From the IMG/VR virus record IMGVR_UViG_3300031998_000024, positions 59,872 to 123,871 of that record: a stretch of DNA of 64,000 nucleotides; one strand, 5' to 3'. The DNA is from a virus. Lineage: Duplodnaviria > Caudoviricetes. Numbering within the stretch: the first letter of the stretch is position 1; every line of letters begins with the position of its first letter. Below the pieces are notes generated by a model that worked only from the letters and a program-made list of their open reading frames with translations, had not been told where the DNA came from and did not search any database. Below are positions 21,069 through 57,722 of this stretch, piece after piece. A program made the translations under genes and the position numbers.

Positions 21069-22277
21069 ATGATTGAAAAGAATTTAGAAGTTTTTGAGCC
21101 TGAAAATGGGTTTGTTCAAACAGAGAATTTTGCTAAACAGTATCCAAGAATTAACAATTTTATTCTCAATAACCAAGATGGTTGGGATGAAAGTCGTGAT
21201 GGTAAGGTTAGAGAAATTTTGGATTTCAAAACAACGCTGCTTAATCCTTATAAAAGGATGGTTGGTGGACAAAAAAGAAACATTAATGTGTTTTTTCTAC
21301 TTGCTGAAGCGATGTGGATTTTTGCGGGTCATAAGGATGTTTCGTTTCTCACAGCATTCAATAAAAAGATGGGCGATTTTTCGGATGACGGTAATGTATT
21401 CCACGCGCCATACGGATTCCGTTTGCGTCACTGGGGAGTTCGTTCTGAAGACAAATTCGTTGAAGAAAATATGCACATTGCTCAAGGGTATGACCAAATT
21501 TCTGATGCGGTAAAGATTTTTCAAAATAATCCTAATAGCCGTCAGGTTGTTCTTGCTATTTGGAATCCTGATTTTGACCTTGGTACTATTACTAAGGATA
21601 TTCCGTGCAACGATATTGTTATAATGAAAATCCGTAATGGTAAACTTTATACAACTGTTCAGAATCGTAGTAATGATTTACATTGGGGATTGCCTACTAA
21701 TATTTTCCAGTTTGGATTTTTGAGCGAGATTTTGGCTAATGTTCTTGGTGTTACTCTTGGAACGCAAACACATAATTCTCATAGCCTACATATTTATGAT
21801 TGGAATCAGATAGCGTTTACAATGCAATCTGAATACGAAAGCGGTAATCAAACAACGCTTTATGAAATTCCTAATATAGTCGCTATTCCAATGGATATTG
21901 ATTTCGATAATCAGATTGCTGGAAATAGATTGAGGGAGGTTGATATTATGATTGAAAGAATTATATCAAACCTTACCAAAATAATTAATGGCGTAGAGCC
22001 TAATGAAGAGGAGGTAGCAGATACGATTAGTAAGTCAAAATGGTTTACTTGCGTTTATAGGATGCTTGAAATTTATTTGAATTACAAAAAGGATATTGCT
22101 AAGGATTTCAGTGCTGAAGAAAAGAAGGATTGCGCTAAATTTGCCTTGGATTCTATTTACAGCGTTCTTATAAGTAAAGAAATGGAAAATTGGGATATTG
22201 GTACATTAGCGGTTAATTTCTTTGCTCATAGAATAGGCGATGAACCAAAACCAGAAATTTTAATTGGTAAGTTATGA
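21069..22277 (+). CDS. thymidylate-synthase homolog, probable dUMP hydroxymethylase
   Basis: ESRDG, NVFFLLAEAMWIFAG, FSDDG..APYGFR, KDIPCN, NRSNDLHWGLPTN, HSLHIY. Confidence 0.8.
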   Translation: MIEKNLEVFEPENGFVQTENFAKQYPRINNFILNNQDGWDESRDGKVREILDFKTTLLNPYKRMVGGQKRNINVFFLLAEAMWIFAGHKDVSFLTAFNKKMGDFSDDGNVFHAPYGFRLRHWGVRSEDKFVEENMHIAQGYDQISDAVKIFQNNPNSRQVVLAIWNPDFDLGTITKDIPCNDIVIMKIRNGKLYTTVQNRSNDLHWGLPTNIFQFGFLSEILANVLGVTLGTQTHNSHSLHIYDWNQIAFTMQSEYESGNQTTLYEIPNIVAIPMDIDFDNQIAGNRLREVDIMIERIISNLTKIINGVEPNEEEVADTISKSKWFTCVYRMLEIYLNYKKDIAKDFSAEEKKDCAKFALDSIYSVLISKEMENWDIGTLAVNFFAHRIGDEPKPEILIGKL

Positions 22278-23950
22278 TTGACGAAAATCTCAGAAATTGG
22301 GTTTCAGATAACAAAATGATAATATCGGAGTCATCGCAAGGCGATTCCGATATTATTTTGATTGATGGTGTAGGTAAGTTTCTTTATATACATCCATTTG
22401 GCGGTAATATTATTGATGAAGATTTCGGGTTTATAATGTCGGATGAAGAATTTGAATTATGCGACAATAAACAGGTTGATTATATACTATTTGAATTTGG
22501 TGGTAAGTTTTATTATTCACCGCTGAAAGAAGATAGGAGTAAGTACAACGAAATAATTTATAAACCTGAATTCAATGATTTCAAATATCTTGGTAAGTGT
22601 TCTGAAGATTTAGTTATGCCGTTTGTTCATCTTGGTGTTCACGATGAGTATGAGATGATGAATGGTAGCGGTAATGCTAAATTATGGGCTCAAAAGGCTG
22701 CTTTTTTAGGATATAAGGCTTTGGGACTTTCTGATTGTAATACCTTAGCAGGAACACTTGCGTTTCAGGAGGCTTGCGATAAATATAAATTACAACCAGT
22801 TATTGGTGAAACCGTAATTGTTGCTAAAAATTATAATCCCGATAGTTCGGTGATGCCTGAAACATTTGAATTGAAGTTATTCGTTACTAATGATGTCGGT
22901 TGGAAAAATCTTTTATTTATTAGCAAGGAAATAAATGTGAAATACAAGGGTTTTATTCCCGATGAAATACTTTTCCAATACGCTGATGGATTAGTGGCAG
23001 TAATACCACCCGCAAGTCTTTTTAACAACATTAGTAGTGATATAGATTCTACTAATAAATTGATAAAGTTGTATAAGAAACATTTTGTCGATTTATATTA
23101 TCAAATTGATACAGTTGAATACAATTCTAAAACGCTTTTCAAGAAACATCTTTCAGCAATAGATAGATATTTATGCAATTATCGTAAAAAGATAAAGCCG
23201 ATTGTTATTAATGATTCTTATTATCTTGATGCGGAAGAACATGAATTAAAATCTATGTTGAATAAAATTACTGGTAAGGTTAATGCTGAATCTGAAGACC
23301 AGTATTTCAAAAGCGTTGGAGATACGCTTGCTTCATATGACGATTGGTTTGATGATGTAGAGCCTTTATTTGATGCTATTATTGTCGGTATAGAAAACAC
23401 AAATAAATTAGCAGAACAATGTAATTTCCGTATCAACAATTCAGATAGAAAAATCCCTAAGTTTGAAGTTGATGACCCTGAAGCGTTTTTCTTTGATGTT
23501 CTTCAAAAGGGTATAAATGACAAGTTAGTTGGCAAGATTCCTGAAAAGGATATGGAGCAATATATGAAAAGAATAGAGTTTGAATGTTCAATCATTGTTC
23601 CTAATGATTTGTGTTCATATTTACTTATTCTTTGGGATATTATTCAGTGGTGTAAATCTGAGGGATATATGGTTGGTCCAGGTCGTGGTTCTGTTTGTGG
23701 TTCGTTAGTAGCGTATTGTATGGACATTACTCAAGTTGACCCTATTCCGAATGGTTTGTATTTTGAAAGATTTTTGAATATTGCTCGTATAGCAGCACAC
23801 CATAGTTATACATTAACAATGGAAGATGGTTCTGAGTATAAGTTTAATGATGGTGACCGTGTTCCGATAGTTGGCGGAGGTTTTGTTGAAGTTTCTAAGG
23901 AAACGAATTGGGATGATTTAGATATTGATGTTAAGGCAATAGTTTTATAA
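22274..23950 (+). CDS. dnaE: DNA polymerase III alpha, N-terminal half (PHP + start of palm)
   Basis: FVHLGVHDEY, NDSYY, GPGRGSVCGSLVAY, LYFERFLN. Confidence 0.95.
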   Translation: MIDENLRNWVSDNKMIISESSQGDSDIILIDGVGKFLYIHPFGGNIIDEDFGFIMSDEEFELCDNKQVDYILFEFGGKFYYSPLKEDRSKYNEIIYKPEFNDFKYLGKCSEDLVMPFVHLGVHDEYEMMNGSGNAKLWAQKAAFLGYKALGLSDCNTLAGTLAFQEACDKYKLQPVIGETVIVAKNYNPDSSVMPETFELKLFVTNDVGWKNLLFISKEINVKYKGFIPDEILFQYADGLVAVIPPASLFNNISSDIDSTNKLIKLYKKHFVDLYYQIDTVEYNSKTLFKKHLSAIDRYLCNYRKKIKPIVINDSYYLDAEEHELKSMLNKITGKVNAESEDQYFKSVGDTLASYDDWFDDVEPLFDAIIVGIENTNKLAEQCNFRINNSDRKIPKFEVDDPEAFFFDVLQKGINDKLVGKIPEKDMEQYMKRIEFECSIIVPNDLCSYLLILWDIIQWCKSEGYMVGPGRGSVCGSLVAYCMDITQVDPIPNGLYFERFLNIARIAAHHSYTLTMEDGSEYKFNDGDRVPIVGGGFVEVSKETNWDDLDIDVKAIVL

Positions 23951-24694: not shown

Positions 24695-26776
24695 ATGAAA
24701 GTTAGGTCTGTAAAGGTTAAAAAATTCTATCAAGATACACCCGATATAGATGTCGATTTTGAGCCAGTTGCTCGTGACGCTGTGAAGGATTATATTGTTC
24801 GCAAATACGGAAGTGCTTGGTCTTGTAGTGTATCTACTTACACACGTGTGAAGTTGAAAACCGCCATAAAGGATTTTGGTAAGGTTGAGGGATTGCCGTT
24901 TGATTTGACCAATAAGGTTACAAAGGATATTGATGACCAAATTGAATACACTTGGGGTGATTTAATAGAATTTGGTTCAAGGTCTAAAACGCTTTATAAA
25001 TTCATTCAGGAAAATCCTGAAATAATACATTTGACCAAATATGCTTTGATGATACCGAAGGCTGAAAGTATTCACCCTTCTGCTTATATAATAGTACCTA
25101 AACAAAATTCAGATGGAGAGAAAACCGATATTTTCAATCTAATGCCTATGAAGGAAATTGATGGGCTTTTAGTTTGTGAATGGGAGGGTAAGTACACTGA
25201 AAGTTCTTTGTTCTTGAAAGAGGATATTTTAGGACTATCTCAATTGACTAAGATACACAACATCATGAAGTTAATTGAGAAACATTATGGCACAAAAATA
25301 GATGTTACGCAAATTCCGTTTGACGACAAAGAGGTTTTTAAGTTCTTCAAAAGAGGATGGTGTGAAGATGTATTTCAGTTCGGAACAACTGGTTTGATGG
25401 GTTATTGTCGTCAGGTTAAACCAAGTCAATTATCGGATTTAATTGCTATGACCGCTTTATTCAGACCTGGTCCAATGGAGAGTAACGCTCATCAAGATTT
25501 TGCCGATATTAAGAATGGAAGGAAAAAACCTAAATACGATTATGGTATTCAAAATATAACAGAGGAAACATATTCACTTTTGGTGTACCAAGAGCAAATG
25601 ATGTCTATCATTCACCAGTTAGGAGGGTTATCGCTTATTGATGCTGAAAATGCGAGAAAATACATCAAGAAAAAGGCTCATAAGGAATTGAATGAGTTGG
25701 GTGATAGATTTATAGCAGGTGCTATTAGCAATGGATGTCCTGAAAAAGAGGCTAAGAAGATTTGGGATAAGATGAACGCTTTTAGTTCTTACAGTTTCAA
25801 TAAGAGTCATGCTGCTGCTTATAGTTATATTTCATATTGGTCAATGTGGTTTAAGGTTAATTATCCGCTTGAATTTTGGACTGTTTCTTTGAGCGAAAGT
25901 AAGGAAACTGAAATACCATATAGATTAGCTGAAATGAAAAAGGCTGGAGTTGAGGTTGAAGTAAGACCGCCTGATGTTAATTATTCAACCGATTATTTCA
26001 CTTGTGACCCCAAGGAGCAACGAATATTCTTCAGTTTGAATAAGATTAAGGGTGTTGGTGATGTAGCGGTTGCTTCATTATTGAAAGAGCGTAACGAACA
26101 TGGTCAGTTTTTTGATTTCGATGAGTTTCTTTCAAGAGTTCCTGGTAAGGTGAATAAGACTGTTATCAAGGGTTTGATAGTTGGCGGAGCGTTTGATTTA
26201 TTGTGTGATATAAAACAACCGCGTGATAGAAAGAAATTATTAGAGCGTTATTTGATTGATATCAAAAAAGATTCTGAACTACCTGAGCCGTATAATTCAC
26301 CCGATTCTTTGACTAATGCATTTTGGATTCAAGAGCAAAAGCGTTTGACTGGTTTTGGTGAAATTGATTACGAAAACTATATAAAGGATTTGATTCCAAA
26401 TAAGCGGTTTGTAAGTCTTTATGTAGATGAAAACGAATTTGAAAGAGTTCCTGAAAAGAAGGAGGTTGTACTGGCTGGTAAGTTTTTGTTTTATCGTGAA
26501 AGTAATACTAAGAATGGTGTTATGGGTACAATACAACTTGATTGTAATAATACCATTATTAATTGCACTATTTGGCCTGATATTTGGCAACTTTATAGGG
26601 AAGAAATTGAAGATTACAAGGGTAGGATAATAGCATTAAACGGATTCGCTCAGAAGGACAAGTTCAGAAATGAAAAGCGTTTATTTTCAAATGATAGAAC
26701 AAAAATTTATGTTATTAGTGAGAGTAAGACAGCGTTAAATAGATTACAAGAATGGCGTAATTCAAAAAAGATTTAA
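24695..26776 (+). CDS. dnaE: DNA polymerase III alpha, C-terminal half
   Basis: PDIDVDF, KEDILGL, VFQF, ALFRPGP, VYQEQ, FNKSHA, PPDVN, IKGVG, OB fold. Confidence 0.95.
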   Translation: MKVRSVKVKKFYQDTPDIDVDFEPVARDAVKDYIVRKYGSAWSCSVSTYTRVKLKTAIKDFGKVEGLPFDLTNKVTKDIDDQIEYTWGDLIEFGSRSKTLYKFIQENPEIIHLTKYALMIPKAESIHPSAYIIVPKQNSDGEKTDIFNLMPMKEIDGLLVCEWEGKYTESSLFLKEDILGLSQLTKIHNIMKLIEKHYGTKIDVTQIPFDDKEVFKFFKRGWCEDVFQFGTTGLMGYCRQVKPSQLSDLIAMTALFRPGPMESNAHQDFADIKNGRKKPKYDYGIQNITEETYSLLVYQEQMMSIIHQLGGLSLIDAENARKYIKKKAHKELNELGDRFIAGAISNGCPEKEAKKIWDKMNAFSSYSFNKSHAAAYSYISYWSMWFKVNYPLEFWTVSLSESKETEIPYRLAEMKKAGVEVEVRPPDVNYSTDYFTCDPKEQRIFFSLNKIKGVGDVAVASLLKERNEHGQFFDFDEFLSRVPGKVNKTVIKGLIVGGAFDLLCDIKQPRDRKKLLERYLIDIKKDSELPEPYNSPDSLTNAFWIQEQKRLTGFGEIDYENYIKDLIPNKRFVSLYVDENEFERVPEKKEVVLAGKFLFYRESNTKNGVMGTIQLDCNNTIINCTIWPDIWQLYREEIEDYKGRIIALNGFAQKDKFRNEKRLFSNDRTKIYVISESKTALNRLQEWRNSKKI

Positions 26777-42720: not shown

Positions 42721-42969
42721 ATGGCGAATAGACTATCAATGGTAATGTTCTTTAATCGGAATGAGCAAGGAACATTTGATTGCGTCGGCAGAACAAAGAT
42801 TATTAAACAGCCGTTTATTGCATTAGAAATTTATGCTAATACACCTAATCCAGCGTCACAACTTATTGAGGGTGAAACAGAAGAGGAATTGCTGAAAGCC
42901 GCTGATAAGATGGAAGATGATATGCATGATTTAGAGTATTTGGCGAAAAATGTTGAGCCGTATTTATAA
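42721..42969 (+). CDS. hypothetical protein
   Basis: ORF. Confidence 0.6.
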   Translation: MANRLSMVMFFNRNEQGTFDCVGRTKIIKQPFIALEIYANTPNPASQLIEGETEEELLKAADKMEDDMHDLEYLAKNVEPYL

Positions 42970-43211
42970 AAAATTTCGTTCAGAGTTTATAAATATGAAC
43001 TGAGTAAAAACCTCAATCAGTGGTTCCATTACGATGCGTCCTTGCCTTAAACCAGTAAGGTGGGGGCGGTTTGAAAGAAGTCTGCTTGTCGTTCTTTGAA
43101 TTATTGATTAAACCGCTTTGCGGGGATGCGTCAATATAATACATAAATTTGACGAAGCAAAAATAAATAAGTGTCGATATTTCCGAGAGCGGCAAGCGTT
43201 CTTTCATTCGC

Positions 43212-43286
43212 GTTCCTGTAGCGCAGTTCGGTTAGAGCAGCTGACTCATAATCAGCAGGTCGAAGGTTCAATCCCTTTCAGGAACA
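43212..43286 (+). tRNA. tRNA with CAT anticodon (probably Ile2, otherwise elongator Met)
   Basis: Acceptor GTTCCTG/CAGGAAC, anticodon arm GCTGA-CTCATAA-TCAGC, T loop TTCAATC; no encoded CCA. Confidence 0.92.
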
Positions 43287-43492
43287 CGAAACTGGTGGTG
43301 CACTCATTTCCGATTTCTTTCATAATCTTTATCGGTGTTATTGAGTGAAATGCCCAACCTTCTACTCACCACCAGTTAATTCCCAACGCTGAAATCGCAG
43401 TGTCCTTTGTCGGGATGGCCTCCGAAATATTGTGACGCTTGCACAGTTAGTTTAGTACTGGCGAAAGCCTTTATGAAGAGTTTGGGATGGTA

Positions 43493-43585
43493 GGGTGTGA
43501 TACACCGCGATTTTGGGCGGTGCTTTTTGATTCGTTAGTATCCATACGATAGAATTGTTAGTTGGTTCGATTCCAGCCTCACCCA
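43493..43585 (+). ncRNA. tRNA-like element without a canonical anticodon arm
   Basis: GGGTGTG/CTCACCC-A acceptor, GTTGG-TTCGATT-CCAGC T arm, 6-bp CACCGC/GCGGTG arm. Confidence 0.6.
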
Positions 43586-43587
43586 CA

Positions 43588-43860
43588 AGCAAAGTCCGTT
43601 GAGATATTAATGAGGACTTGTTGGACAAGGGTTCGATTCCCTTCACCTCCACGCTGGCGTGCGTAGCGTTAGTCACATTCGTCAATTCGGGGGAGAAATC
43701 CCCCAACCTTGGGGGTGACTGGTTTTGACAGCAAGTTAGTAGGTAATGTTGAGGAGTTTGTGGCCTATAAATGGCAAAAAAGTTTCTTTTGACCGCATGG
43801 TCAATCAGCGTCATGAAGCAAGAGTTTATGCTTGCGCAGCCTAATGGCTGAAAGATGCGG
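43588..43860 (+). ncRNA. ssrA: circularly permuted (two-piece) tmRNA
   Basis: Acceptor piece ..GGAC-AAGGG-TTCGATT-CCCTT-CACCTCC-A (ends 43651) lies before 5' GGGGGTGACTGGTTTTGAC (43711); G3:U70; tag frame 43773-43844 ends YACAA-TAA. Confidence 0.9.
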
Positions 43861-43861
43861 C

Positions 43862-43901
43862 AGGGAGGGTTTACGGTGTAAATGCCTCCTTGTTTCTTTT
43901 T
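43862..43901 (+). terminator. intrinsic terminator after tmRNA
   Basis: GGAGG-GTTTAC/GTAAAT-GCCTCC stem + T-rich tail. Confidence 0.7.
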
Positions 43902-43957
43902 ACACAGCAGGGTTTATAAATTCAAAAACTTATACTAACAAATTAAATCGTTACACT

Positions 43958-44491
43958 ATGAAAATCAGTTTTGAGATTACTCCAAGTGAGTTGTTTGAGT
44001 TACTTGATGGATTATCCGAGCCTCAGGAGCCGCAGGAAGTCCCAGTTGGTATGCTTGTTGTAGGTGTTAAATCTAAAATTTCTGAATCACAAGGAAATCA
44101 GAACAAGCGTAAAGAATCAAATACGAACAATCAAGAAAAAGAGGTCAAGGAAAATGCTGATAAGCAACCTAAGACCGAAGGCGATGGTTCAGAAATTTCT
44201 AATGATGAGCATCCTGATGAAAATAGGGGTGGTAAGAATTACAAAAAGGAATTGCGTAGCAAGCCTGTGGATGTTTGTTTAGAAAGCGATGAAAAAGAGG
44301 ATTGGAAGAAATTCAAGAGCGTTAAGGATGCTGCTGATTATATAGGCACTACATCTAATAGCGTTATCAAAGCAATCAAACAAGGTAAGTCAATCATGGG
44401 TTACAAAGTCCGATATACAAACAAGGAGTTGGACGACATCTTCAAAAAGATAGATGAAGACAATAAGAAACCCTATGAGCCTGGTAAGTAA
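43958..44491 (+). CDS. NUMOD1/IENR1-type HTH protein
   Basis: KPVDV..FKSVKDAADYIG..IKAIK..GYKVRY; real start probably ATG43958. Confidence 0.7.
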   Translation: MKISFEITPSELFELLDGLSEPQEPQEVPVGMLVVGVKSKISESQGNQNKRKESNTNNQEKEVKENADKQPKTEGDGSEISNDEHPDENRGGKNYKKELRSKPVDVCLESDEKEDWKKFKSVKDAADYIGTTSNSVIKAIKQGKSIMGYKVRYTNKELDDIFKKIDEDNKKPYEPGK

Positions 44492-54647: not shown

Positions 54648-57600
54648 ATGCTTGGTGAATTAGAAACATACAAAAGAAGTCCGTTACACAAAGCAGAGTG
54701 TCTAAGAATTGTTGATGAGATTATAGACGGATTGGATGAGCGTGGTATCAACGAGATAATGGAAGGTACTGAGCTGGATATTGATAGAATGATTGATATA
54801 ATGCTTGAGGAAACCTTCTGTGTTATCTTTACTGGTCAGCGTGAAATAGACTTTGCTCCACACTATACAGAGCGTTTATCAGAGAGTATAGAAGAAACGC
54901 TAAGGGTAAATAATTTGACTTATTTCATTACAAGTGTTTTACCCGATTTTCAGTTTGGTTGGCATCATATTGAGTGGGGTGACTTAGTGATGCACTATAA
55001 GAAGTTGTGTGTTGAGGCTGCTCGTGGTCACGGAAAATCTTGGTATTTTAGCAACGCTTATATCATTTGGCAGTTGTATAGATATAAGAGGTCAAAGACG
55101 ATGCAATTCAGCATGAGACCAACGCGAAGCAATAGCAATCGTGGTTTTTTGTTTTCGTTTTCACTGCAACAAAGTGTTGACCTTATAGAGATTTTGAAGG
55201 GTACGATTGAAAGCAACGATACATTAGCAGAAAGACTAATGCCTCAAAATACCAAAGAGGGTGCTTGGGCGTCAACTAATATAACTTGTAGAAATGGAGC
55301 GCGTTTGACTGGTAAGGGTTTTGGTTCGTCTGTTCGTGGTGCTCACCCTTATTTTATTGTTGTTGATGACGGGTTAAAAGATAATGTAATTTATTCAAGC
55401 CTACAAAGACAAAAGAGCATTGATTATTTTCATTCGGTAATCATGAATATGATTATTCCTGGCGGGCAAACAATCGTTGTCGGTTGCGTTTCACCTTACA
55501 CTATTGTATTATCTGATAAAAGAGGTTTTATCAGAATGAGAAGTGTTAAGTATAATTACATAGAGGATAAGAAAAAAGTTGTAAAACACGTTGAAAAGTT
55601 TTTAGATAAGAATGGATTTTCTCAAACGTCGCATTATTTTTATAATGGCGTAGGAGACATGCTCAGAATCACTTTACAAGGCGGTTTTGAGTTAGAGTGC
55701 AGTAAAATACATCCGTTATGGAAGATGTTTGAAAACGGAATACCAGGCTGGCAAAAATCAGCTGAGTTGAAGATTGGTGATTATATCGCTATAAAACCAA
55801 CTGAAATTGAATCATTTGGAATGCCTGTTGAGCTAAAATCTTTTATAAGTTCTTATAAAAGGAAAAAGAATCGAAATTATAATGAGCAGAATTTGAAATT
55901 ACCATTATATTTAGATGAAGATTTGGCGTATTTTATTGGACTTTGGATTGCAGAAGGTACAATTTACAAAAATGGAAGTGGAATTGAAATGTCCACTGGC
56001 GATTCTGAGATTGAAGATTTTTTGAAATCTTTGATAAAATATAATATTAATTTTAGAGGAAATGGAAGATTTGATAAAAGTTATGCTTATTCGTGTACGA
56101 ATAAGAGATTACATGCGTTTTTCATTTGGTTGGGTTTTGATTGCCCTTGTTATTGTAATATAAAGAATATTCCCGATAAATTATTATCAGCGCCAAAGAA
56201 TATTTTAAAACAAATAATTTCAGGAATATTTGATGGCGATGGACATGTAGATGAAAGTGATGGTAAAATAGGAGTTGTATTATCATCTACATCCCTTGGT
56301 TTAATTAAAACAGTGCAAAATGTTTTATTAATGGGATGGGGGATAATTTCAACTTATAGTTATGTAAAAGCGGAAAGTATTAATGCAAGCGGAAAGAATA
56401 ACACTCACGTTAATTATGACCAATACAGTTTGGTTATAATAGGTCATAATGCGATTAAATTCGGTAAGGAAATCGGATTTAAATTAAGTAGAAAGCAATT
56501 GCGCATTGAAAAGCATTTCAGCGACAAATTTAATCTTAACAATTCTAATTTTTATAATATTCCTCATCAAGCTGGTCTGTATAAAAATGCTGAAAATAAA
56601 CGTTTAGCAAATAAAATAACGTATAGAGATAAAGAGGGGTATGGGAATTTTATAGATTCTGCTTATTCTATTAAAAAAGCTAAAACTATAAATAAATTCG
56701 TATTGAAAAAGGTTTGCGAATTTATGAAAAAGATAACAAATAGCAATGATTATGACCAATTGCTTAAAAATTGTGAAGAAGATGTTATTTGGAGGAGAAT
56801 TGTTAAAATTGAAAAATTTCAAGGAAGTTCTTGCGATTTTGTAATTCCGTCAACGCATTCTTTTATAACCAACGGAATTGTTTCGCATAACACACCATTT
56901 CACGCTCAAGACCTTTATGGAGATTTGAAAACCAAGAAGGGGTGGTTTGTAATAGAATATCCTGCTATATTTCCTGATGGAAGGATTCTTTGGCCTCAAA
57001 GATTCTCATATCAAACGCTTATGGATATGCGTAACACGCAGGGAAATATCATATTTAGCCGTGAAAATCTTTGCCGCCCAATTGTGTCAGATGCTTCTAT
57101 ATTCTCCTTTGATATTTTACGCAACAGCCTTATACGCATGGAAATTTATTGCTTAGTGCGTAGTAGGGATGATTTTCCGAAAAAGTTTGATAAGGTTGTT
57201 GTTGGAGCCGACTTTGCTATATCATCTGCCGTTGGAGCCGACTATTATTGCTATACTGTGTTTGGCGTTGGAGAGGATGGCGGAATGTGGTTGCTTTGGA
57301 TAGAGATTGGTAAGGGGCGAAAGTATGATGAGCAGTTGCAGATTCTAAGAGGAATCAATGCGCGTTTTAGACCTGATGTAATGGTGTTTGAAGCGAATGT
57401 ATTCCAACAGATATTTTCAGATGGCGCGCAAGATTATGGAATGCCTGTTGTTTCGCATACAACGGGTACGGAGAAAAATGACTTATCAAAAGGTTGGGTT
57501 GCATTAGCAACGATGTTTGAAAGAGGAATGTTCCACATACCAGTTGGCGATGATTATAGTCAAAGAATAAAGGATATGATTTTTGACCAGTTAGGTTCAG

Positions 57601-57722
57601 TTGCATTTACTGACCATGGTTTACAGTCGGTTGGTTCGCACGATGATATTTGTAGTAGTATGTGGCTTGCTACTTTGGGTAGGAATTTGCAACGCACTGG
57701 CAGTAAATTTATGTTTTTGTAG
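54648..57722 (+). CDS. terL: terminase large subunit (intein-containing)
   Basis: AARGHGKS, VRGAHP..VVDD, VG|TP, GADFA, FEANVFQ, HDDIC. Confidence 0.92.
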   Translation: MLGELETYKRSPLHKAECLRIVDEIIDGLDERGINEIMEGTELDIDRMIDIMLEETFCVIFTGQREIDFAPHYTERLSESIEETLRVNNLTYFITSVLPDFQFGWHHIEWGDLVMHYKKLCVEAARGHGKSWYFSNAYIIWQLYRYKRSKTMQFSMRPTRSNSNRGFLFSFSLQQSVDLIEILKGTIESNDTLAERLMPQNTKEGAWASTNITCRNGARLTGKGFGSSVRGAHPYFIVVDDGLKDNVIYSSLQRQKSIDYFHSVIMNMIIPGGQTIVVGCVSPYTIVLSDKRGFIRMRSVKYNYIEDKKKVVKHVEKFLDKNGFSQTSHYFYNGVGDMLRITLQGGFELECSKIHPLWKMFENGIPGWQKSAELKIGDYIAIKPTEIESFGMPVELKSFISSYKRKKNRNYNEQNLKLPLYLDEDLAYFIGLWIAEGTIYKNGSGIEMSTGDSEIEDFLKSLIKYNINFRGNGRFDKSYAYSCTNKRLHAFFIWLGFDCPCYCNIKNIPDKLLSAPKNILKQIISGIFDGDGHVDESDGKIGVVLSSTSLGLIKTVQNVLLMGWGIISTYSYVKAESINASGKNNTHVNYDQYSLVIIGHNAIKFGKEIGFKLSRKQLRIEKHFSDKFNLNNSNFYNIPHQAGLYKNAENKRLANKITYRDKEGYGNFIDSAYSIKKAKTINKFVLKKVCEFMKKITNSNDYDQLLKNCEEDVIWRRIVKIEKFQGSSCDFVIPSTHSFITNGIVSHNTPFHAQDLYGDLKTKKGWFVIEYPAIFPDGRILWPQRFSYQTLMDMRNTQGNIIFSRENLCRPIVSDASIFSFDILRNSLIRMEIYCLVRSRDDFPKKFDKVVVGADFAISSAVGADYYCYTVFGVGEDGGMWLLWIEIGKGRKYDEQLQILRGINARFRPDVMVFEANVFQQIFSDGAQDYGMPVVSHTTGTEKNDLSKGWVALATMFERGMFHIPVGDDYSQRIKDMIFDQLGSVAFTDHGLQSVGSHDDICSSMWLATLGRNLQRTGSKFMFL
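55485..56891 (+). mobile_element. intein with LAGLIDADG homing endonuclease (469 aa)
   Basis: G|CVSPYT start, CSKIHP block B, FIGLWIAEG and ISGIFDGDG, GIVSHN|T end. Confidence 0.95.

Follow-up and report, generated by a model that had tools for sequence, protein, structure and literature searches.

We infer, with considerable confidence, that a virulent-looking phage, most likely of a Bacteroidota host, carries a functional two-piece tmRNA which contains no pseudoknots and which belongs to a class of phage genes that probably derives from the one-piece ssrA of Bacteroidia, apart from the two-piece lineages of Alphaproteobacteria, Betaproteobacteria and cyanobacteria. tmRNA is the RNA that frees stalled ribosomes, and its two-piece form is textbook knowledge for three bacterial lineages. 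The gene lies in the right half of a 123,871-bp IMG/VR virus record; this half, 64,000 nt in length, is referred to here as the window, and all coordinates follow its numbering. We use "class A" as a working name for the minimal two-piece tmRNA of Bacteroidota phages, and not for a published family. Genes of this kind are already annotated as tmRNA in four public phage records; the gene described here is one further, rather divergent member with a hint of expression, and is not the discovery of the family.

Organization of the tmRNA gene

The non-coding stretch between the end of one ORF at 42969 and the start of the next at 43958 holds a tRNA-Met gene and the tmRNA gene. ARAGORN calls a permuted tmRNA here (43562-43935) with a 23-residue tag frame, and the Rfam model tmRNA_permuted (RF04321) matches 43603-43844 with 59.1 bits against a gathering cut-off of 47 (E 6e-9 for the whole window). 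The two programs concur that this is a circularly permuted, two-piece tmRNA gene. Its parts are as follows.

43586-43651, plus strand: acceptor piece, 66 nt before CCA addition, with a putative 5' end (sequence, ARAGORN and two-strand fold)
43589-43597, plus strand: P2c, 3' strand (two-strand fold)
43603-43609, plus strand: P2b, 3' strand (two-strand fold)
43615/6-43623, plus strand: P2a, 3' strand (two-strand fold)
43627-43643, plus strand: T arm (sequence; pairs counted on 42 relatives)
43644-43650, plus strand: acceptor stem, 3' strand (sequence; pairs counted on 42 relatives)
43651, plus strand: discriminator A (sequence)
43652-43710, plus strand: intervening segment of 59 nt, presumed discarded, with hairpins at 43653-43673 and 43689-43704 (fold z = -2.8)
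43711-43901, plus strand: coding piece, ~190 nt (Rfam, ARAGORN and folding)
43711-43717, plus strand: acceptor stem, 5' strand
43718-43728, plus strand: D-loop analogue
43729-43737, plus strand: P2a, 5' strand (two-strand fold)
43744-43750, plus strand: P2b, 5' strand (two-strand fold)
43753-43761, plus strand: P2c, 5' strand (two-strand fold)
43773-43844, plus strand: tag reading frame of 23 codons and the stop UAA, resuming on a Gly codon (GGC) and ending in Tyr-Ala-Cys-Ala-Ala (ARAGORN)
43837-43850, plus strand: stop-codon hairpin of 5 bp with the stop in its loop (folding)
43859-43901, plus strand: intrinsic terminator, made up of a 16-bp hairpin and a U-run, at which the coding piece ends

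When 43586-43651 (with CCA added) and 43711-43900 are folded together as two strands without constraints, they form a 7-bp acceptor stem with G3:U70 and three P2 helices, with a single G-G mismatch in P2c; an alternative pairing extends into a tRNA-like element immediately upstream. The tRNA-Ala-like domain thus consists of the acceptor stem with its G3:U70 pair, the discriminator A and a T arm with a conserved T loop, and has no anticodon arm. The CCA end is not encoded, A43651 being followed by its first C only. The stop-codon hairpin resembles helix 5 of standard tmRNA.

Most of this arrangement had been anticipated in an earlier note on the same DNA, made from the sequence alone. Its permuted order, with an acceptor 3' half ending at 43651 upstream of a 5' half starting at 43711, has the correct coordinates; its acceptor stem with G3:U70 and three P2-like helices are reproduced by the unconstrained fold; its hairpin-bearing spacer of 59 nt is present, folding giving two hairpins; and the stop codon that it placed in a hairpin lies in the loop. 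It had named ARAGORN and a permuted-tmRNA covariance model as checks, and both report a permuted tmRNA, ARAGORN with the very tag frame that the note had read. A minus-strand ORF of 120 codons (43452-43814) lies over the tmRNA gene; it has a marginal PHROG match only (E 0.009), and we do not regard it as a gene.

Small size and the predicted absence of pseudoknots

The resume codon begins at nt 63, 62 nt after the 5' end, which confirms the earlier count. All bases before the resume codon lie in the acceptor strand, the D-loop analogue or the P2 strands, save the 11 nt from P2c to the resume codon, and these are all resume context; pseudoknot 1 could therefore not be accommodated. On the 3' side of the tag are the stop hairpin and the terminator and nothing more, and the acceptor piece starts at the P2 3' strand, so that nothing replaces pseudoknots 2-4. 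Judged from the spacing and the folds of both pieces, the pseudoknots, of which there are typically four in tmRNA, are predicted to be absent from this RNA; the minimal form without obvious pseudoknots that had been suggested from the sequence is thereby borne out. The mature RNA is predicted to total ~255-260 nt. In E. coli tmRNA, pseudoknot 1 is important, yet it can be replaced by a hairpin.

The phage and its presumed host

The 123,871-bp record has direct terminal repeats and is estimated to be complete; in the window the long ORFs are all on the plus strand and the G+C content is ~35%. The source of the DNA is a bovine gut metagenome. The best matches of the DnaE, TerL and UvrD-like helicase proteins, at ~33-36% identity, are in phages of Bacteroides, Chryseobacterium, Tenacibaculum and Cellulophaga, and these protein matches, together with the habitat, make a Bacteroidota host plausible; the assignment to a Bacteroidota phage in the earlier note is plausible on the same grounds. 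We could not identify a tyrosine-type (PF00589) integrase in the phage which, at 124 kb and with direct terminal repeats, looks virulent. No SmpB gene was found in the phage, so that host factors would be needed for its tmRNA to act.

The large terminase (54648-57722; 1024 residues) has matches to intein-containing helicases, RecA and endonuclease families over residues ~280-750, with both flanks matching terminase, and the insertion looks like an intein or a homing endonuclease. The DnaE-type polymerase is split between the ORFs 22274-23950 and 24695-26776, with one gene in between; two adjacent DnaE genes are annotated as well in Tenacibaculum phage Larrie and Cellulophaga phage phi13:1.

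A family of minimal two-piece tmRNAs in phages

When the region was compared by blastn with 50,697 phage records, only tRNA-Met look-alikes and a 32-nt cyanophage T-arm match came back, an outcome which indicates that nucleotide searches cannot find relatives of this RNA. Pattern scans in which a T arm with its acceptor strand had to precede a tmRNA 5' end by 35-70 nt gave loci on 98 viral, 29 metagenome and 6 genome contigs, and these split cleanly into two classes by the distance to the resume codon. In class A, 55-65 nt lie between the 5' end and the resume codon and the tags begin with Gly; in class B the distance is at least 83 nt, mostly 83-107, and the tags begin with Ala in 68 of 70 genes, in the proteobacterial style. 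The study gene has the class A spacing, the Gly resume codon, a Bacteroidia-type D-loop analogue, the three-part P2 between the pieces and no pseudoknots.

At least 42 distinct class A genes were collected on viral and metagenome contigs, and ARAGORN missed about half of them. Neither blastn nor the contig scans found a close relative of the study gene: a scan with its exact T arm returned two contigs, neither closely related. There is likewise no relative of the neighbouring 379-residue protein in the viral contigs, and synteny could therefore not be used.

The earlier note had proposed covariation across relatives as a check, and among class A the acceptor stem, the T stem and the P2 pairings do covary. 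Across the 42 distinct genes the acceptor stem is 100% paired and G3:U70 is invariant, while pair 5:68 is CG in 20, UA in 14, GC in 6, AU in 1 and GU in 1; in the T stem, where two pairs covary fully, pairing is 99.5%. This complementarity was not imposed by the search, since the positions concerned were left free (N) in the patterns. The three-helix layout of P2 recurs in most members, and the P2a strands show matched changes across the class. Attempts at aligning the P2 helices with MAFFT left them misaligned (35-66% paired), and an anchored run-length count of P2a fails on a one-base bulge found in most members; we therefore turned to a partner-swap energy test. In 21 of 24 cluster representatives the acceptor and coding strands form a stronger duplex with each other than with strands taken from other clusters (mean difference -4.4 kcal/mol; Wilcoxon p 1.5e-6), and the strand pair of the study gene, at -27.1 kcal/mol against a swap mean of -13.3, beats all swaps (82/82). 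Shuffle z-scores of the P2 duplex for single sequences are weak in many AU-rich members, with a median of -0.96. In the class A alignment, conservation at the resume-codon GG is at least 90%; the spacer measures 16-70 nt and is not conserved in sequence.

Two further observations were made on the collected loci. On L233, a DUF805b RNA motif (2563-2597; Rfam RF02914, 44.7 bits) lies ~50 nt 3' of a class A gene with a 16-nt spacer. Among class B, the viral-contig loci L011, L025-L028, L046, L059, L071, L083 and L089 encode unusually long tags, of 29 residues, which start with Ala-Asn/Lys-Ala and end with Leu-Ala-Val, and which are near-identical over many contigs.

The upstream RNA cluster and a hint of its expression

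Several further elements precede or span the tmRNA gene.

43212-43287, plus strand: tRNA-Met (CAU), the first recognisable gene of the cluster (ARAGORN; Rfam tRNA, 63.4 bits)
43493-43585, plus strand: tRNA-like element with an acceptor stem, a 6-bp D-like stem and a T arm, in which an irregular long arm replaces the anticodon arm (cloverleaf-like fold)
42999-43864, plus strand: rumen metatranscriptome contig of 866 nt (run X3; 2 mismatches), reaching across all of the RNA cluster, from a structured region 5' of tRNA-Met through that gene, two structured modules and the tRNA-like element to the tmRNA gene as far as its terminator

Neither ARAGORN nor Rfam calls the tRNA-like element at 43493-43585. 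It ends 37 nt before a GGAC motif, and in 6 of the 42 class A genes a tRNA called by ARAGORN (five typed, one untyped) ends 34-36 nt before this motif; the presence of a tRNA at the equivalent position suggests upstream processing, and the element is probably a processing signal which sets the 5' end of the acceptor piece.

The 866-nt contig begins just 3' of a promoter-like motif at 42981, and its depth is 40.9 versus 5.5 for the next contig, which lies on the downstream gene (~7-fold). It runs straight through the spacer 43652-43710, which fits either a precursor or DNA carry-over, assembled contigs carrying no information on RNA ends or strand. This contig, which may reflect DNA carry-over, is a weak hint that the RNA cluster is expressed.

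Between tRNA-Met and the tRNA-like element, 43288-43492 is a structured non-coding stretch of ~200 nt with no Rfam match. Two other runs, X5 (a bovine-gut RNA library, size-fractionated) and X4, have contigs at 95-99% identity which cover this stretch alone; parts left uncovered in these runs are uninformative, and one of the contigs starts exactly after tRNA-Met. The start of the 866-nt contig lies ~30 nt past the preceding ORF, and the ~200 nt from there to tRNA-Met (42999-43211) hold no credible ORF and may belong to the transcript as an additional RNA. In the ORF downstream of the tmRNA, an X3 contig skips 48 nt at 44062-44111, which makes it an in-frame length variant of this gene in a near-identical phage.

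The locus might be a functionless remnant, composed of host ssrA pieces acquired by a phage integrating into the tmRNA gene, and phages which integrate into ssrA are indeed known to carry its 3' end (PMC9004378). We judge this highly improbable: both halves, the tag frame and the terminator are present, and in permuted order; the pairings between the pieces covary over 24 sequence clusters; the phage has direct terminal repeats and no tyrosine-type integrase was found in it; and the region stands at raised depth in an RNA library.

Proposed mode of action

For a functional tmRNA the following pathway can be proposed. The gene would be transcribed as the last unit of an RNA cluster of ~870 nt, as a single non-coding transcript. 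Enzymes of tRNA processing (RNase P and those of 3'-end processing) would cut beside the tRNA-like element, 3' of A43651 and 5' of G43711, the 59-nt spacer would be discarded, and CCA would be added by the CCA-adding enzyme of the host. The 66-nt acceptor piece and the coding piece of ~190 nt would then be held together by the acceptor stem and the three-part P2. Host AlaRS would charge the RNA by way of G3:U70, and host SmpB and EF-Tu would bring it to stalled ribosomes, where translation would resume at the Gly codon at 43773 and add the 23-residue tag ending in Ala-Ala. The phage might gain from additional rescue capacity, from a tag specific to it, or by competing with the host tmRNA. The roles put forward in the earlier note, an altered tag or resistance to the RNases of the host, are speculative.

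Competition could also be the chief purpose, with the RNA a decoy which is charged or bound by SmpB and thereby blocks or diverts trans-translation in the host. There is a precedent in the tag-less tmRNA-like RNA of mycobacteriophage DS6A, which is cited in PMC11915505 as inhibiting the endogenous tmRNA in E. coli; a phage without SmpB would draw on the host supply, and all pseudoknots are missing. Unlike the DS6A RNA, however, the class A genes with a readable tag keep the resume context, an open frame, a hydrophobic residue followed by Ala-Ala or a similar end, and a stop codon, and the study gene has the stop-codon hairpin as well. A pure decoy would not need the resume context, tag frame and stop codon, and we consider this explanation improbable.

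Relationship to the one-piece tmRNA of Bacteroidia

Among Bacteroidota genomes, standard tmRNA was found above cut-off in 96 of 101 in a sample of the phylum and in 52 of 61 of the class Bacteroidia, in line with the statement in the earlier note that Bacteroidota ssrA is one-piece. The permuted model exceeded its cut-off in one of 151 Bacteroidota genomes, an Aequorivita MAG, on a 5.8-kb contig (L111/L150) where ARAGORN misses the gene; this contig probably comes from a phage and was binned with the MAG. A tmRNA database covering 29,415 Bacteroidota assemblies has 24,380 standard and 48 permuted genes (PMC11915505, Supplementary Table 2), and assigns the 48 to the alpha, beta or cyano type by best score.

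Several features of the study gene recur unchanged or nearly unchanged in the one-piece Bacteroidia tmRNA (RF00023): the resume context with its Gly resume codon, the motif that precedes the T arm, P2a and the D-loop analogue. The last two are near-identical in the one-piece Bacteroidia loci L182, L185 and L172, and a Gly resume codon occurs in 23 of 27 Bacteroidia genomes versus 2 of 70 class B genes. The one-piece RNA, of 350-405 nt, differs in being unpermuted and in having pseudoknot 1 on the 5' side of the tag and more structure on the 3' side; in the sampled Bacteroidia its resume codon is at nt 95-99 and its length is 356-406 nt. Its tags have 8-10 residues and mostly end in Tyr-Ala-Leu/Met-Ala-Ala, whereas the study tag has 23 and ends in Tyr-Ala-Cys-Ala-Ala.

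None of the lineage-specific Rfam models reaches its cut-off. The best is beta_tmRNA (RF01850) with 45.1 bits against a cut-off of 84, over model positions 76-167, the tRNA-like core, only; the alpha (RF01849) and cyano (RF01851) models have no match at the gathering cut-off and, at E up to 1, fall below the 45.1 bits of beta. Because Gly resume codon, resume context and D-loop analogue are shared with Bacteroidia, and the alpha, beta and cyano models stay below their cut-offs, a separate, Bacteroidia-derived origin of class A is plausible, the balance lying level or tilting somewhat in its favour on the sequence features at hand. The earlier note had inferred an independent permutation in a phage; with a family of at least 42 genes it is not a private or first event, but an origin apart from alpha, beta and cyano may well stand.

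Alternatively, class A may go back to a permuted lineage of greater age, such as the proteobacterial type of the class B phages, and may have converged on Bacteroidia features through the need to work with the SmpB, ribosome and protease of Bacteroidota. The best partial match among the lineage models is, after all, to beta_tmRNA, though it is far under the cut-off and confined to the tRNA-like core. Identity of the tRNA-like domain is 0.67 to Bacteroidia versus 0.61-0.65 to the other groups compared, alpha and cyano loci standing outside this comparison, and these small margins would suit an older lineage; the domain, with ~70 columns, is too short to support a tree robustly. Classes A and B also share motifs on the T-arm side, which the scan patterns selected for. 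However, class A is like the one-piece Bacteroidia RNA, and unlike class B, in three separate traits, namely the resume context, the Gly resume codon, and the D-loop analogue together with P2a; class B moreover retains at least 83 nt before the resume codon. We therefore think descent from an older permuted lineage unlikely.

The derivation from Bacteroidia can be stated in its fullest form: class A would be a fourth independent origin of two-piece tmRNA, from one-piece Bacteroidia ssrA, found in phages only and having lost all pseudoknots, with a tmRNA of ~255-260 nt which works with host SmpB and AlaRS and whose 5' end is set, in the present gene, by a non-decoding tRNA-like element. To this combined statement we would give an even chance. 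If true, it means that permutation arose again, outside cells, and that these phages offer a natural test of the minimum RNA required for trans-translation.

Comparison with known two-piece tmRNAs

The closest known counterparts are in Bacteroidota phages. A permuted tmRNA was confirmed in Chryseobacterium phage MA9V-3 (PV245944.1), Maribacter phage Panino (PP540027.1) and crAss-like cr50_1 (NC_055868.1): for each of these GenBank lists a tmRNA feature, ARAGORN makes a permuted call, RF04321 scores above cut-off and the tag has Gly first. In crAss-like cr10_1 (NC_055875.1), an annotated tmRNA lies beneath a blastn match. MA9V-3 and Panino are cultured phages of Bacteroidota. MA9V-3 has the class A spacing, 61-62 nt from 5' end to resume codon, like the study gene, and in Panino the start of the tag is much like that of the study tag and a tRNA also abuts the tmRNA gene. 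Outside the tRNA-like core the study gene is unrelated to these four, and blastn with the window recovers none of them. Compared with the annotated genes of Bacteroidota phages its tag is longer (23 residues), with Cys near the end, and it is preceded by a tRNA-like element with no anticodon loop where the annotated case has a true tRNA. The specifics of the study gene are thus the long tag ending in Tyr-Ala-Cys-Ala-Ala, the anticodon-less tRNA-like element, the rumen setting and the contig from an RNA library.

The public phage records carry the label "tmRNA" with no mention of permutation or absent pseudoknots, and a full-text literature search on tmRNA in Bacteroidota and crAss-like phages and on permuted tmRNA found no description of the class A form. 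For annotation, the genes missed by ARAGORN matter, as does the filing of permuted Bacteroidota genes under alpha, beta or cyano by best score. The family also raises the question of why gut and marine Bacteroidota phages carry a ribosome-rescue RNA of their own, with long and divergent tags.

Two-piece tmRNAs have been published for other phages, namely the OM43 phage Melnitz, pelagimyophages and cyanophages, and 53 of 133 distinct phage tmRNAs called by ARAGORN were two-piece (Buchholz et al., 2022, PMC9004378). As here, these are permuted ssrA genes in lytic phages; they are of the alpha or cyano type, matching the two-piece lineages of their hosts, and some have a glutamine riboswitch (PMC9004378). 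In the study phage, by contrast, the presumed host phylum has a one-piece tmRNA and the RNA lacks pseudoknots, unlike the published phage two-piece tmRNAs.

In cells, two-piece tmRNA is found in Alphaproteobacteria, some Betaproteobacteria and cyanobacteria (Keiler et al., 2000; Sharkady and Williams, 2004, as cited in PMC9004378). These RNAs (RF01849-RF01851) have in common with the study gene the permuted order and a precursor cut into acceptor and coding pieces, which are joined by the acceptor stem and P2. They resume on Ala, whereas the study gene resumes on Gly, has no pseudoknots, is phage-borne and scores below the cut-offs of their models. If the reading given here is true, the phage-borne lineage is new in two respects, its mimicry of the one-piece Bacteroidota tmRNA and its loss of all pseudoknots.
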